NCBI GenBank assembly: GCA_963815195.1
Contig: CAWFGE010000018.1
Coordinates: 224,001 to 288,000, forward strand
Length of the DNA: 64,000 nucleotides
Direction: 5' to 3'
Source: an uncultured Planctomycetaceae bacterium
GTDB taxonomy: Bacteria > Planctomycetota > Planctomycetia > Planctomycetales > Planctomycetaceae
Shown here: positions 3,113-14,306 of the stretch, in pieces
How the letters are laid out: each line of letters opens with the position of its first letter
How positions within the stretch are numbered: position 1 is the first letter of the stretch
Notes under the pieces: generated by a model
Told to the model about the DNA's origin: nothing
Databases searched by the model: none
What the model saw: the letters and a program-made list of their open reading frames with translations, nothing else
Position numbers and translations under genes: made by a program

Positions 3113-3613
3113 ATGTTGGCTTATGATTTTGATGAAAGCGTTGGGTATTGGGTGGGGATGACCTCGCATGCCATCCGCCGGGCCGTGGATGCGGAACTGG
3201 CCAAGGAGAACATCACCCTGCGGCAGTTCGAGGTTCTGGCCTGGATTGCCCTGGAGGGTGAGCCGTCGCAGGTGGAGTTGGCGGAGCGCCTGGGGATCGA
3301 AGCCCCGACGCTTGCGGGGATTTTGACCCGCATGGAACGCGACGGCTGGCTGGAGCGCTACGGTTGCCCCGAAGACCGCCGCCGCAAGCGCATCCGGGCC
3401 ACGCCCAAGGCGGAAGCGGTGTGGGCGCGGATGACCGATTGCAGCCGGCGGGTCCGCGCGAAAGCGACCCTAGGCATTTCCGCTGAGGATTTGGCGTCTT
3501 TCAAGCAGATTTGTGGAAAGCTCCGCACGAATTTGGAACCGGATGCCGAAGGCGGGTGTCCCTCCAAGGTGAAGCTGGAGCCTTCCAAACAAAAACTTCC
3601 CGTGGGTCAGTAG
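3113..3613 (+). CDS. MarR/SlyA family transcriptional regulator
   Basis: wHTH SQVELAERLGIEAPTLAGILTRMERDGWLER and DRR wing motif. Confidence 0.92.
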   Translation: MLAYDFDESVGYWVGMTSHAIRRAVDAELAKENITLRQFEVLAWIALEGEPSQVELAERLGIEAPTLAGILTRMERDGWLERYGCPEDRRRKRIRATPKAEAVWARMTDCSRRVRAKATLGISAEDLASFKQICGKLRTNLEPDAEGGCPSKVKLEPSKQKLPVGQ

Positions 3614-3638: not shown

Positions 3639-5150
3639 ATGAGATTTCGACAAATCGCACCCCGTTCGCGGCAAATCCTGAAATGGGCCGGATGTTTGGC
3701 CGGGATGTTCTTGGCGGTGACCATGCTGGCCGGTTGCGGGGGCGAGAAAGCCGCGGCCCAAGGCAAAAAAGACGGTCCCCCGGCGTTGGTGCGGGTGGCC
3801 CAGCTTAAACAAAAGCCGATCTCGCGGAAGATCATCGTGGTGGGCAACGTCACGCCCGTGCGGACGAGCGTGGTGGCTTCGGGAGCCAACGGCGTGGTGA
3901 AATTCCTCCATGACGCTCCCCGGGAAGACGACGAGGGCACTCCAGTGAGCCCGTCGGATGCGCTGGCTCTGCCGGAAGTGGAACAAGGCCAGTTCGTGAC
4001 CGAAGGGACCGTGCTTTCGGTCCTGCGAATGGAGACCGCCAACAGCGAAGTGGACCAGGCGGAAGCATTGTTGGAAGAGCGGAAAGCGAACTTCATGGCC
4101 ACGAAAGACACGCACCCGGCAGATGTCGCGCACGCGGAAGCCATGATAAAAATGGCGCAGGCGGTGGAATCCAACGCCCGCACCAAATTCAACCGCGCCC
4201 AAAACCTGTATTCTCGCGGGGCGGCGACGGACGCCGAGTTTGAAGACGCCCGGGAACGATTGACCGCGGCGAGCGAAGCCCTCGTTGCGGCCGAAAAGAA
4301 ATGGGCCAGCGTTAAGGGAGGACAGGAAATCGAGCAGGCCAAGGCCAGCCGGGACGCCCAGGCCGCCCAGGTCAAATATCTGACAACCGAGCGGGACAAG
4401 CGCACGACGAAAGCTCCCTTTGATGGATTCATCGTGGAGATGCACACCTACAAAGGGCAATGGCTGTCCAAAGGCGACCCCGTCGCGACGCTGGCGAAAA
4501 TGGACGAAGTGGACGTGATTGTCAACGTCGACCAGGCGGATTTGCCTTATGTGCGGTTCGGGCAGACGGCCCAGGTCATGGTGGAAGGGGCGGTCACGGC
4601 CAAGGGTGAGCCGAAGACCGAGTGGACGGGAGAGATCGTGCACATCGTTCCGCAAAGCGATTGGGAGCACGGGTCGCGGGGGTTTCCCGTGGTGGTGCGG
4701 ATTCACAACAAGATCGACGACGCCCCCGGAGCCGGGACCGACGCGACCCGCAAGATTCCCGTGCTCAAAGCGGGCATGCTCGCGACGGTGACGATCCTCG
4801 CCCCCGAGGTGGAAACGCTCTTGGCGCATAAAGACGCCCTGGTGCGATCGACTGAGGGCAATGCGCTGTTTCTCTTTGAGCCGAAGGACAAAACCGCCCA
4901 GCTCGATCCCAACAAACCCACGATGGGAGCCGTCCGCCAGATTTGGGTTGAACCCGATCTCGGGCTGAGCGAAGGCGAATACATCGGGATTCGCCCGGCG
5001 AGCGGACAGCCGGGCGGTCAGAATCCCTTCAAAGCCGGGCAATGGGTCGTGACGGAAGGCGGGGAGCGTTTGCGTCCCATCCAAGACAACGTCAACGCCC
5101 TCCGCCGAATCGATCCGAGCAGCGAAACCGGCGGCGATCAACCCGACTGA
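3639..5150 (+). CDS. RND efflux periplasmic adaptor (MFP) subunit
   Basis: Lipobox MLAGC, lipoyl half-motifs (GQFVTEGTVL; KAPFDGFI...GQWLSKGDPV), coiled-coil hairpin, LKAGM beta-barrel motif. Lies directly upstream of the RND permease. Confidence 0.9.
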   Translation: MRFRQIAPRSRQILKWAGCLAGMFLAVTMLAGCGGEKAAAQGKKDGPPALVRVAQLKQKPISRKIIVVGNVTPVRTSVVASGANGVVKFLHDAPREDDEGTPVSPSDALALPEVEQGQFVTEGTVLSVLRMETANSEVDQAEALLEERKANFMATKDTHPADVAHAEAMIKMAQAVESNARTKFNRAQNLYSRGAATDAEFEDARERLTAASEALVAAEKKWASVKGGQEIEQAKASRDAQAAQVKYLTTERDKRTTKAPFDGFIVEMHTYKGQWLSKGDPVATLAKMDEVDVIVNVDQADLPYVRFGQTAQVMVEGAVTAKGEPKTEWTGEIVHIVPQSDWEHGSRGFPVVVRIHNKIDDAPGAGTDATRKIPVLKAGMLATVTILAPEVETLLAHKDALVRSTEGNALFLFEPKDKTAQLDPNKPTMGAVRQIWVEPDLGLSEGEYIGIRPASGQPGGQNPFKAGQWVVTEGGERLRPIQDNVNALRRIDPSSETGGDQPD

Positions 5151-10974: not shown

Positions 10975-11352
10975 TCAACGGACGATGCGTTCGGATTCGA
11001 CCTTTGGGTAATGGCCGAAATTGACGAGCAACCCTAGTCTGTATCCCGTGCTTTTCAAATAGTTGTGGACTTGAGCGCGGTGTTCTTCGGCAAGTTGTTT
11101 CAGTGCTTTGATTTCAAGAATGACCTTTTCGAAGCAGATAAAGTCGGGAACATATTTCTGCTCCAGTACTCGGCCTTTGTATTTGAGATCAAGAGGTTGC
11201 TGAGCTCGAATGGGGATTCCTCTGCTCGCGAATTCCATTTGCAGACACTCTTGATAAACGGCTTCCAGAAATCCGCAACCCATTTCCGTATACACCTCAA
11301 AACAAGCCCCCATAATCTGGTAGCTCTCATTTTTTAGTGCAACCTCCGCCAT
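10975..11352 (-). CDS. GxxExxY protein (PD-(D/E)XK nuclease-like)
   Basis: GCGFLEAVYQE, YVPDFIC...VILEIKA, QVHNYLK and GLLVNFG motifs. Confidence 0.92.
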   Translation of the reverse strand: MAEVALKNESYQIMGACFEVYTEMGCGFLEAVYQECLQMEFASRGIPIRAQQPLDLKYKGRVLEQKYVPDFICFEKVILEIKALKQLAEEHRAQVHNYLKSTGYRLGLLVNFGHYPKVESERIVR

Positions 11353-11487
11353 TGATCTTCCCCCGACGAACAAGTAGGAACCCCCCCAATACCAGAAAGA
11401 TCAATATACGGTGAAACGTCCTGTTTTGAAGTGCGTTTTCTTATCCTTTTCGTGTATTTCGTGTGTTTCGTGGTCCCTTCCGTCGTC

Positions 11488-12351
11488 TCAATAAAGCGCC
11501 GTGGCCAGTTTGCGGCGGTAGGTGCTCACGATGGCGGAGCTTTGGCCGATGAGGTCGAAGATTTTCAGCATGGTCTCTTTCGCCTCCTGGCCGGCACCTT
11601 CGCGGTCGGCTTGGATGACTTCCAGGCACAGGTCCAAGGCTTCCTCGAACTTGCGGGACACCGCGAGCGCATCGGCGAGTTTGATTTTGAGCGCGAGGTC
11701 GCCGGGGTTCGCTTGAACGGCGGCCCGGGCTTCTTCGACGCCTCCGGTTTCCGCGGCGGCCGCGCGGAGATCGAGTTGGGACTTGAGCTGCTCGGCTTCA
11801 TCCTCCAGGTAGCCTCGGGTTTCCAGTTCGCTAATGATTTGCCGAGCTTCCTCATCCCGGCTTTGCGCGAGAAGCACCCGCGCGAGGCGAATGCGAATCG
11901 CATCGTTCGCGGGATCCGTCTGCGCGGCTTCGCGGTAACACTGCTCGGCGGACACGGGATCGCTGACTTCGAGTTCCTCGCCCCGGCGGAGGAGTTCCTC
12001 CTCGGCAGAAGGCATCAAGGCCTTCACCCATTCCCGAAGTTGCGGCTCCGGCAGCATGCCTTGAAACTGATCCACGGCCCGGCCTTCGTAAACCGCGAAC
12101 ACCGTCGGGATCGATTGCACCCCAAACGCGGCGGCGAGTTCCTGCTCCTCGTCGATGTTGACCTTCGCCAAAACAAGTTTTCCGCCGGCTTCGTTCACCA
12201 GCTTTTCCAGCACCGGACCCAACACCTGGCAGGGCTGGCACCAGGGGGCCCAGAAGTCGATCAGCACGGGGCATTTCATCGAGCGGTCCACGACCTCTTC
12301 TTGAAACGTGGCGGCCGTGGCGTTGATGATCCATGCAGAAGACTCGGGCAT
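11488..12351 (-). CDS. cnoX: Thioredoxin-TPR chaperedoxin (YbbN/CnoX)
   Basis: DFWAPWCQPC thioredoxin domain, VQSIPTV, TPR helices and C-terminal YRRKLATALY. Confidence 0.88.
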   Translation of the reverse strand: MPESSAWIINATAATFQEEVVDRSMKCPVLIDFWAPWCQPCQVLGPVLEKLVNEAGGKLVLAKVNIDEEQELAAAFGVQSIPTVFAVYEGRAVDQFQGMLPEPQLREWVKALMPSAEEELLRRGEELEVSDPVSAEQCYREAAQTDPANDAIRIRLARVLLAQSRDEEARQIISELETRGYLEDEAEQLKSQLDLRAAAAETGGVEEARAAVQANPGDLALKIKLADALAVSRKFEEALDLCLEVIQADREGAGQEAKETMLKIFDLIGQSSAIVSTYRRKLATALY

Positions 12352-12451
12352 GACGGGACTTTCGGAGCAAGCGACCGGGGAAGCGGACCTATTTTTTCCC
12401 TCAGTCTAGGAACTCTCCGAAGGGATTGAAACAATCCCGGGCCAGGCGCAT

Positions 12452-12547
12452 AAAAAAAGCGTCCCGAAACCGCACACGTTCCGAGACGCCTTTTTTAAGT
12501 TGAAAATGCTGACAAGTGCGGGCCAACTCCTGTCATCACTTTCCTCC
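12452..12547 (-). ncRNA. Candidate sigma54-dependent small RNA, copy 1 (~96 nt)
   Basis: Predicted RNA GGAGGAAAGUGAUGACAGG-AGUUGGCCCGCA-CUUGUCAGCAUUUUC, then terminator GCGUCUCGGAAC-GUGUGCG-GUUUCGGGACGC-U7. Paralogous to copy 2 with pairing-preserving substitutions. Confidence 0.7.
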
Positions 12548-12558
12548 AGCCATCAATT

Positions 12559-12573
12559 GCATGTTTCGTGCCA
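12559..12573 (-). promoter_or_regulatory. sigma54 (-24/-12) promoter for sRNA copy 1
   Basis: Minus strand TGGCACGAAACATGC has the GG-N10-GC spacing. Predicted +1 near 12547. Confidence 0.75.
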
Positions 12574-12676
12574 AACCAGAGGGTTAGTTGTTGTTTTGTT
12601 CGCAAGCCATTTTAGTATAACGACTTGAAGAATTATTTCATCCAAAAACCATTGGACTCTCGCTTTCCCAAGGGTG

Positions 12677-12727
12677 AAGCAAAACGCAACACTTGTGGCG
12701 AGATCGCCTCAAGCAAAATGCAACACT
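12677..12727. promoter_or_regulatory. Candidate enhancer-binding-protein sites (direct repeat)
   Basis: AAGCAAAACGCAACACT (12677-12693) and AAGCAAAATGCAACACT (12711-12727). A similar GCAACA pair lies at 12983 and 13023, upstream of copy 2. Confidence 0.5.
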
Positions 12728-12759
12728 CTTTGCCGATTCTCGAACAGGGAATCGGCAAC

Positions 12760-12853
12760 AAAAAAGCGTCCCGAAACCGCACACGTTTCGGAACGCCTTT
12801 GATGCAAGAATCGATGACAAGTGCGGGCCAACCCTTATCATCGCTTCTCACAG
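12760..12853 (-). ncRNA. Candidate sigma54-dependent small RNA, copy 2 (~94 nt)
   Basis: Predicted RNA GAGAAGCGAUGAUAAG-GGUUGGCCCGCA-CUUGUCAUCGAUUCUU, then terminator GCGUUCCGAAAC-GUGUGCG-GUUUCGGGACGC-U6. Confidence 0.7.
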
Positions 12854-12864
12854 TAAAACGGTTT

Positions 12865-12879
12865 GCACATAGAATGCCA
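12865..12879 (-). promoter_or_regulatory. sigma54 (-24/-12) promoter for sRNA copy 2
   Basis: Minus strand TGGCATTCTATGTGC has the GG-N10-GC spacing. Predicted +1 near 12851-12853. Confidence 0.72.
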
Positions 12880-13043
12880 AAACGGGCTACAATTCCGGCA
12901 TTATCCGTAAGTCCCTTTACACGAATCTGTTGTGTCAGTTTTTGGATGACGAGCCAACCCAGCGGACTTCCCGAAAAGTGTAGCAACATCAAACAGTTGC
13001 GGTCGCAGCCCGAATGCAGAATGCAACATTTTTTCGATGGGGC

Positions 13044-13997
13044 TTACTGGTCCCACAAGTTGCGCTGGGACGGATCGGCCGCTGGTTTTCGTTTTTGGTT
13101 TTGCGTTTGACGCTGGCGGTCTTCGAGTTTGATCCCGTCTTTGGTTTGGGGAGCACTGGCGAGCGGGTTCTCGGCCCCATCGAGCGGTTGGCCGGGGCGG
13201 ATTTCGCTCAATCGGCGGTTGGTTTGCTCGGCGTAGTCCGGCGAGAGTTCAAATCCCAAGAACCGGCGATTCAGTTTTTTGGCGACCGCCATTGTTGTGC
13301 CGCTGCCCGCGAAGGGATCGAGCACCAACTCGCCTTCGCGAGAGCAGGACCGCATGATTCGTCCCAGCACCTGTTCGGGCATTTGGCAGCCGTGCCAGCC
13401 TTTGCGTTCCTTGAAGGTCCCGTTGACCCGCGGGATGTACCAGGTGTCTTCGTGGGCTTGGAAACTCTCCGGGCAATCTTGGGGGCGGAGAATCCAGGTG
13501 TCGTCCGGCAATCGGCCATTGGGATTGGCCCGCTTGTCGCCGTAAACCAGTTGCCGGGCCGAGGGCACGCGGACCGCGGGGTCGTCGGCGTTGAAGGTGA
13601 AGGCTTTCGGATCTTTCACCATGTAAAACAGATGCACGTGGGACCGGCTGAATTTGTGTTTGCAATTCACCCCGAAGGTGTAGTACCAGACGACCCAACT
13701 CCGGCAGGAAAGCCCCAATTGCCGCTGCATGAGGACTTTCAGCTCGGCCGCAAACTCGTCGCCGATCGCCAGCCAGAACGTGCCGGCGGGTTTGAGCACC
13801 CGCTTGACCTCGGCCATCCAGTCGCAAGACCAGCGGAGATATTCCTCCGCCTCGCGCTGGTCGTCGTATTGGTCGTATTCGTAGCCGATGTTGAAAGGCG
13901 GATCGGCAAACGCCAAATCCACGCACTCCGCCGGCAGCGACCGCATCCCGGCGATGCAGTCCCCGTTGATAACTTGATCCACAGGCAATTCGGACAT
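13044..13997 (-). CDS. Orphan DNA N4-cytosine/N6-adenine methyltransferase (beta class)
   Basis: Catalytic DPPF precedes HGCQMP and the SAM-binding [11 protein letters not shown]. No adjacent restriction enzyme. Confidence 0.9.
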
Positions 13998-14306
13998 GGT
14001 GGTTTGGAGATTTTCGTTACGATAAGAAGAGGAATCGAAGCGACGGCAGGAGCATGTTAATGCAAATCGGTGTGCAACTGTAGGAATCGCTCGCCGGAAA
14101 TACACAGAATGCACTCGCCCCCACGCGGGCCGCGGTCGAGAGTCGGTTCTTCGGCAAGCCGCTCAAGAGCACGGGGCCTCTGCCGGTTACGTTGGTTTGA
14201 GAATGCTGTCGAAAGCTCATTTCTCGCACCAAAGGCGATTCGCATCCTTAAACGTCGATTGGGAGTAACCGGGGGGCTGACGCCCCGCGCTCGCCCTTTT
14301 GCACTT

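Follow-up and report, generated by a model that had tools for sequence, protein, structure and literature searches.

Three described groups of small RNA (sRNA) genes come closest to the element reported here, a tandem pair of predicted ~95-nt sRNA genes in a 64,000-nt stretch of DNA (the window; positions 224,001 to 288,000 of contig CAWFGE010000018.1, assembly GCA_963815195.1) from an uncultured Planctomycetaceae bacterium. In Vibrio, the ~100-nt Qrr RNAs are encoded by several paralogous genes per genome, all of which carry a sigma-54 promoter and an intrinsic terminator of their own; in PMC11443567, the LuxO site upstream of the qrr genes is given as TTGCA-W3-TGCAA and qrr1 adjoins luxO. 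The myxobacterial Pxr, for which a sigma-54 promoter is predicted, is described in PMC5568312 as an RNA of three stem-loops that is always found beside the sigma-54-dependent regulator gene nla19, between it and an NADH dehydrogenase gene, with tandem paralogues in Cystobacter that each have their own sigma-54 promoter. GlmY and GlmZ of Enterobacteriaceae are homologous sRNA paralogues with sigma-54 promoters and upstream response-regulator sites, and PMC3045617 reports species in which a sigma-70 promoter overlaps the sigma-54 one or takes its place.

The planctomycete element shares features with each of these groups. As with Qrr, there are several paralogues per genome (four here), each with its own sigma-54-type promoter and terminator, putative activator sites lie ~100-190 nt upstream, and the paralogues have an invariant segment in common while the rest diverges; moreover, in the source genome (G000 in our coordinates) a good upstream palindrome combined with a strict sigma-54 promoter was seen only at the four sRNA genes. 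It differs from Qrr in having one 5' hairpin instead of several stem-loops, in its phylum, and in that no activator gene stands beside any copy. With Pxr it shares the tandem paralogues with promoters of their own, the restriction to one lineage and the predicted sigma-54 promoter, which is present upstream of most of its homologues. In contrast, the alignment of its first hairpin to the Pxr model is marked with non-canonical pairs, the loop sequence is different, and there is no nla19-type neighbour, as no Sigma54_activat domain was found among 85 flanking open reading frames (ORFs) from 43 loci. The likeness to GlmY/GlmZ extends to homologous paralogues, sigma-54 promoters and putative upstream sites of the response-regulator type, but there was no Rfam match and both the structure and the upstream site motif differ. 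A scan of positions 12000-13400 against Rfam 15 gave Pxr (RF01812) as the only near-significant match, full-length at 26.6 bits (E 0.033) for a gathering score of 80; no Pxr match at E<=1, nor any other relevant match, came from the remaining copies and homologues, the Gimesia and Planctopirus loci among them, and the Qrr model gave none at E<=10 in the scan of the same positions. This agrees with the initial annotation of the window, which had recognised no known family. We rate the element as an enhancer-dependent sigma-54 sRNA without an Rfam family, that is, a new member of a kind already known. The literature searched, which left most subscription journals outside and in which common terms swamped some queries, held no description of the element and no planctomycete small RNA, and a 2025 cross-phylum survey of sigma-54 regulons that covers Planctomycetia makes no mention of sRNA (PMC12316311).

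Our preferred reading, to which we give a probability of about 0.55, is that the two copies are tandem paralogues of a family-wide ~95-nt sRNA gene that is transcribed by sigma-54 with an NtrC-type activator at paired palindromes and that regulates mRNAs by pairing through a 12-nt loop. According to this model, a phosphorylation-controlled enhancer-binding protein of the NtrC type, bound at the paired upstream palindromes, would switch the sRNA on, the sigma-54 RNA polymerase would transcribe it, and the RNA would act in trans through its invariant hairpin loop, preferably by base pairing with mRNAs. Three points are inferred from sequence comparison, namely the production of the RNA, its control by sigma-54 and one particular activator, and the role of the loop as an mRNA seed and not as a protein site.

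The initial annotation had described two ~120-bp direct repeats ~306 bp apart. The spacing was borne out, since repeat searches disclosed two direct-repeat pairs (12448-12493/12755-12800, 46 nt, 89%; 12510-12541/12815-12846, 32 nt, 88%) that are both 305-307 bp apart. The length of the unit was not: a minus-strand alignment of 12440-12740 with 12747-13045 showed 79% column identity across ~300 nt, upstream motifs included, so that the duplicated unit is larger than the ~120 bp proposed. Positions 12440-13045, in the intergenic region between a CnoX-like gene and the gene for an N6/N4 DNA methyltransferase, consist of two such ~300-bp direct-repeat units. Read along the minus strand, both show in the same order a pair of upstream palindromes, the promoter TGGCA(C/T)-N6-TGC, a hairpin whose loop is GUUGGCCCGCAC, a variable linker, a G+C-rich hairpin and a U-run (Table 1). 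The minus-strand folds, with which the stems and terminator arms quoted in the initial annotation coincide, reached -44.5 kcal/mol (z -5.4) for copy 1 and -46.5 kcal/mol (z -5.8) for copy 2, and none of 200 shuffles was as good. The plus strand folded less strongly (-24.3 kcal/mol, z -1.9, and -33.7 kcal/mol, z -4.5, respectively). The G-U wobbles work only on the minus strand, as the initial annotation had claimed. The loop is identical in both copies, as had been claimed, and both terminators are strong with full U-runs.

Covariation, which the initial annotation had proposed as a check, was found in both helices. RNAalifold predicted 21 pairs on a MAFFT alignment, 16 of them with compensatory changes. 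Among 58 distinct sequences, 96.1% of the cells were paired, compared with 36-54% when the partners were slid, and double changes were seen at 18 of the 21 pairs, with 0/500 shuffles reaching the observed values; this second alignment was fitted to the covariance model, a bias that favours structure, so that the MAFFT/RNAalifold result serves as the independent check. Both helices covary strongly. The loop G(U/C)UGGCCCGCA was invariant in the 32-sequence alignment (A2), and its core GGCCCGC was retained even in the most divergent lineages. A further conserved element, UGCGC, was contiguous with the T-run in 64/138 homologues, sigma-70-type and short forms among them; in the source genome, the same word follows 5/183 terminator-like sites and 240/20068 T-runs (1.2%).

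Another reading is that the transcript codes for a very small protein through the loop (…VGPHL…). Copy 1 has a GGAGGA followed by AUG and a 13-codon frame, and a start codon stands in the loop frame in 41/58 homologues, compared with 22 and 21 in the other frames. However, ATG is present in only 17/58 and only 20/58 have a stop codon within the RNA, the apparent start falls on covarying stem positions (U 27, C 11, A 7 of 58), and the third-codon positions of the loop are invariant as nucleotides, which points to a constraint on the RNA and not on a protein. A coding role is unlikely, and we give it almost no credence.

Searches of the source genome (8.87 Mb, 25 contigs) by BLAST, motif scan and covariance model agreed on four copies and no more: the two in the window (81.9 and 76.7 bits) and one each on contigs C7 (68.4 bits) and C10 (55.1 bits). 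Every one has its own TGGCA(C/T)-N6-TGC, and their terminators differ in sequence but the loop is identical. This bears on whether the copies are a passive repeat, either a REP-like (repetitive extragenic palindromic) element or a duplicated terminator, with no function of its own. The terminator hairpins of the two window copies are nearly identical, and that of copy 1 lies between an A-run and a T-run and could work in both directions, as such a reading would have it. On the other hand, REP-type elements are marked by tens to hundreds of promoterless copies, and the initial annotation had named hundreds of scattered promoterless copies as one finding that would overturn it; four copies, each with a promoter, are not a REP element. 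Since, in addition, 50 of 52 genera retain the element, its helices covary, its loop is invariant, and its promoter and upstream sites are also conserved, we regard a passive repeat as extremely improbable.

The search of relatives proposed in the initial annotation was carried out with a covariance model (R1) built from 32 distinct aligned RNA portions (A2) and restricted to the RNA, the promoter being excluded. In the order sample, all of which belongs to one family, it matched 115/151 genomes and 50/52 genera at E<=1e-3, with 1-4 copies per genome, and 102/151 genomes at E<=1e-5 (our own count from the table). In the class sample it matched 26/35 genomes of the family and 0/115 genomes in 16 other families, and in the phylum sample 5/6 genomes of the family; the five matches outside the family in the latter (30-37 bits) were discarded as members because they were terminators only and lacked the loop. 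These genome samples are related and the counts are not independent. Of 20 inspected matches at 33-48 bits, 18 were taken as genuine and 2 as false, so that the tally at E<=1e-3 contains a few false positives and the one at E<=1e-5 leaves out some genuine members. A few genera are mostly without the element (g6, 0/5; g71, 0/4; g84, 1/19; g64, 1/5). Exact 11-mers of the loop in five genomes of mostly negative genera were in coding sequence and look like chance, and a search in the negative genera for divergent sRNAs by way of the upstream palindrome gave a sole site with a following sigma-54 promoter, which precedes a protein-coding gene. BLAST with copy 1 matched 27/201 genomes of the same family through the top of the hairpin and the loop only, and all the hairpin-bearing matches showed the same gene anatomy.

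A search of 185,579 genomes, one per species, with an exact 20-nt pattern yielded 112 stretches. The titles of the 80 matches listed were almost all Planctomycetaceae, Planctomycetota, Gimesia, Schlesneria or Planctopirus hydrillae; the only non-planctomycete title among them was a Rhodopseudomonas sp. (L120, JBQTCH010000002.1:736253-736872), a coding-like sequence that lacks a promoter, a hairpin partner and a terminator and is probably a chance match. The named records place the element in Planctomycetaceae (Gimesia, Planctopirus, Schlesneria); in Planctopirus hydrillae JC280 the match is at NZ_LYDR01000063.1:56760-57379. The full architecture recurs in dozens of genera and is not due to chance.

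The minus-strand GG-N10-GC promoters of the initial annotation are present in both copies. We scored the pattern GG[CT][AGT][CT]-N6-NGC within 45 nt upstream of each homologue, a region that is not part of R1. The motif was found upstream of 53/58 homologues identified with the RNA-only model (50/58 in its strict form) and ahead of 27/32 sequences outside the training of the model, compared with 5.7% (loose) and 0.85% (strict) of random 50-nt windows of the same loci. A second set derived from the 20-nt pattern (n=79) gave 73/79 and 68/79, respectively, so that the homologues keep the -24/-12 motif as the initial annotation had required. The consensus is TTGGCAC-N6-TGC, with the -12 GC 24-34 nt before the loop. 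As is general for sigma-54 genes, GG-N10-GC stands at a fixed distance in most homologues and the genome encodes rpoN, here once (G000:C5:23199-23672).

Further upstream, the 7-mers ATTTTGC and TGTTGCA were present in 36/58 and 30/58 regions, respectively, compared with ~1.5 in shuffles. The aligned sites form a palindrome, TGTTGCATTTTGCaaCa, with the consensus TGTTGCATTTTGCAACA. At a threshold of <=3 mismatches to a 13-mer, at least one site was found in 49/58 regions and at least two in 34/58, mostly 115-190 nt upstream and often ~33 bp apart. The consensus includes TTGCA-W3-TGCAA, the LuxO site, a likeness that holds at the consensus level only, as the individual sites are looser and show the LuxO core at <=1 mismatch in 10/79 upstream regions. 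Sites at ~-100 to -200 together with genes for enhancer-binding proteins are what activation from an enhancer calls for, and the source genome has 18 PF00158 matches in ~16 genes (two pairs look like split genes), several of them of REC-AAA+-HTH_8 architecture. Five regulators of this architecture, orthologues of G000 C22:352467, C13:918061, C11:46928, C17:234448 and C21:59349, are conserved in genomes with or without the sRNA. A structure-database comparison of three activator candidates returned the same generic NtrC1/LuxO/ZraR list for each and singled out no LuxO orthologue.

A perfect copy of TGTTGCATTTTGCAACA was also observed outside the window, at G000:C18:43810-43826 (L086 3311-3327), between two genes for type II/IV secretion ATPases (PilT/PilB-like). 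It lies ~190 nt before the start codon of the PilT-like gene, with no clear sigma-54 promoter after it. Sites with <=3 mismatches were seen in 5/27 orthologous pilus loci, including that of the source genome, and in three cases the site precedes the gene. The PilT-like gene itself (L086 3505-4638; G000:C18:44004-45137) appears interrupted, as the frame from the ATG at 3505 is not continued in the ORF 3664-4638 and a stop codon is met on translation across both parts; a frameshift, a pseudogene or an assembly error are possible explanations.

With respect to the mode of action, we prefer base pairing on indirect evidence: the source genome encodes Hfq, the RNA combines an A-rich linker with a terminator that ends in a U-tail, and the loop is all that the paralogues have in common. 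The serious rival is an sRNA under the same transcriptional control that binds and sequesters a protein, the loop and the top of the stem being the site of an RNA-binding protein as in GlmY/RapZ or CsrB/RsmZ/CsrA. It is a serious one because the top of the stem is conserved in sequence (in 58 sequences, C-G in 49, A-U in 54 and G-C in 55, plus an invariant G-C) and because the source genome has nine CsrA paralogues above the Pfam cut-off, as well as Hfq; in addition, no mRNA target emerged from our searches. These searches lend it weak support, as they used one genome with crude gene calls. Other observations run against it: each RNA has one such motif only, the loop is without GGA, described as the CsrA recognition motif, and no gene for a candidate partner protein adjoins the element in the 43 loci examined. 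On balance, we consider a protein-binding role possible and distinctly less probable than base pairing. CsrA-family sequences were observed in ten places of the source genome (e.g. C8:497348, C23:426310 and C17:134073), nine above the Pfam cut-off and one below.

Several results weigh against the preferred reading of an sRNA that is driven by sigma-54 and a particular activator and pairs with mRNAs. First, sigma-54 control is not universal, as the motif is absent in 5/58 and 6/79 homologues. In two genera the promoter is sigma-70-like (TTGCAT/TTGCAA-N16-TAAGAT/TAGAAT in g30 and CTTGCA…AAGAAT in g88), which parallels the exchange of sigma factors at GlmY/GlmZ. There is also a short form (~53-70 nt) with no sigma-54 motif, in which a single long loop-bearing hairpin itself runs into the U-run; the genomes that have it, in g61 and at four loci of metagenome-assembled genomes, carry a canonical copy too. 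Second, no upstream site at <=3 mismatches was found in 9/58 and 31/79 homologues, and no orthogroup of enhancer-binding proteins tracked the presence of the sRNA in a quick tree of 61 regulators from three sRNA-positive and three sRNA-negative genomes, a tree limited to ORFs of 440-560 aa and leaving out nine sequences that failed the motif filter. Third, the top four pairs of the hairpin keep their sequence as well as their pairing, which also fits recognition by a protein. Fourth, the target searches yielded no target. Genome-wide, words complementary to the loop were as frequent as reversed-word controls, and intergenic 10-mers complementary to it numbered 56, compared with 60 in controls. 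Around 6218 crudely called gene starts, 27 genes reached a duplex energy of <=-22 kcal/mol, compared with 3, 18, 6 and 13 for four control seeds, an enrichment at start codons that is weak and not robust. The best single site, GCGGGCCAACG, abuts the ATG of a gene for a PrsW-like protease (C12:558426), a gene present in only 2/61 genomes of the family, and was rejected as a conserved target, as was panB, where pairing was no better than with shuffled seeds in 16/16 loci. Since the searches were made in one genome with crude gene calls, their failure is weak evidence.

Other pairings were also set aside. A site after a regulator gene on contig C17 looked like chance, the best tRNA pairing (tRNA-Gln, -22.9 kcal/mol) was judged to be chance as well, and the 5' regions of the regulator genes and of rpoN showed no outstanding pairing with the loop. 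As a separate observation, two intergenic sites (G000:C18:95140 and G000:C6:72281) have GGGTCCGCTGTGCGGGCCA in common. This imperfect palindrome overlaps with a 10-mer complement of the sRNA loop, and at both sites a predicted gene follows 107-150 nt downstream.

The genes around the element bear on its transcription and origin. In the source genome, the loci are flanked by the methyltransferase and CnoX-like genes, by panB or by a sulfate permease gene. About 100 nt separate copy 1 from the CnoX-like gene, which follows it on the same strand, as would be the case for a cis-acting leader or attenuator where promoter, hairpin and terminator gate read-through into the downstream gene, here that of a CnoX-like thioredoxin. 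In 25/43 loci, the closest long ORF downstream has the orientation of the element, and several of these genes encode redox enzymes (Pyr_redox_2 in five loci). Yet the downstream genes vary and are on the opposite strand in 18/43 loci, which argues for an independent transcription unit. Moreover, with two complete tandem units, copy 2 would read into copy 1 only, and the terminators are strong with full U-runs; a leader thus seems very unlikely. Upstream, panB is the divergent gene at 15/43 loci of other genomes and at the C7 copy of the source genome, and the panB locus appears to be the ancestral one. The methyltransferase/CnoX-like context was common only to three other genomes of the same genus, each with two adjacent copies, so that the tandem duplication predates the genus; the pair is a genus-level duplication. 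Beyond the CnoX-like gene, an ORF of the PD-(D/E)XK nuclease family (10975-11373, minus strand; PDDEXK_3, 3.7e-42) was observed less than 2 kb from the methyltransferase gene (13044-14114, minus strand), so that the two flank the CnoX-like gene and the sRNA pair on either side.

Table 1. Positions of the predicted sRNA genes, their control elements and neighbouring genes in the window, and of the short-form homologues in other genomes.
Feature	Position	Strand	Basis or remarks
Predicted sRNA copy 1, ~96 nt	12452..12547	-	5' hairpin, A-rich linker, terminator hairpin, U-run; covariance-model match G000:C18:236452-236549; 5' end predicted, 12 nt past the -12 GC
Loop GUUGGCCCGCAC of copy 1, presumed functional module	12516..12527	-	Identical in both copies
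Sigma-54-type -24/-12 promoter of copy 1, TGGCACGAAACATGC	12559..12573	-	Sequence
Proximal activator-site-like palindrome of copy 1, centred ~-136	12675..12691	.	Repeat search and site scan
Distal activator-site-like palindrome of copy 1, centred ~-170, 34 bp from the proximal site	12709..12725	.	Repeat search and site scan
UGCGC motif right after the U-run of copy 1, conserved 3'-flank element	12446..12450	-	Sequence
Predicted sRNA copy 2, ~94 nt, architecture as copy 1	12760..12853	-	Fold and covariance-model match
Loop GUUGGCCCGCAC of copy 2	12821..12832	-	Sequence
Sigma-54-type promoter of copy 2, TGGCATTCTATGTGC	12865..12879	-	Sequence
Proximal activator-site-like element of copy 2, degenerate (3 mismatches to the palindrome), centred ~-134	12979..12995	.	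Alignment and site scan
Distal activator-site-like element of copy 2, centred ~-167, a short way past the stop codon of the methyltransferase gene	13012..13028	.	Site scan
CnoX-like thioredoxin and TPR gene, downstream of copy 1	11488..12351	-	Pfam Thioredoxin 1.2e-24, TPR_20 3.2e-25
N6/N4 DNA methyltransferase gene, upstream of copy 2	13044..14114	-	Pfam N6_N4_Mtase 1.9e-50
Short-form loci	L110, L113, L119, L172; G060:C137:22976-23028; G124:C1:5097251-5097303, 5386152-5386203		Homologue inspection

Taken together, these results support the sRNA-family interpretation of the initial annotation, and add to it points that it had missed, namely the near-universal spread in the family and the two further copies in the genome, the enhancer-like upstream palindromes, and the sigma-70-like promoters of some lineages. 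A bolder version, which we put forward as a doubtful conjecture, is a Qrr-like switch, in which one regulator of the NtrC/LuxO type, with a sigma-54 regulon consisting essentially of these sRNA genes, would also bind at the type IV pilus ATPase locus and convert a signal into a post-transcriptional programme with one seed, perhaps for the transition from motile to attached cells. If true, the phylum would have its first defined regulatory RNA circuit.

Gene regulation in planctomycetes is little explored, and the element would be a regulatory RNA near-universal in Planctomycetaceae, whose control region is readable as a sigma-54 promoter with paired enhancer sites. It is a candidate for a new Rfam family, and its presence in cultured genera (Gimesia, Planctopirus) makes it open to experiment. 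Besides, with sigma-54 in most lineages, sigma-70-like promoters in some and a short form in some, it offers a natural comparison of promoter turnover on one and the same RNA.

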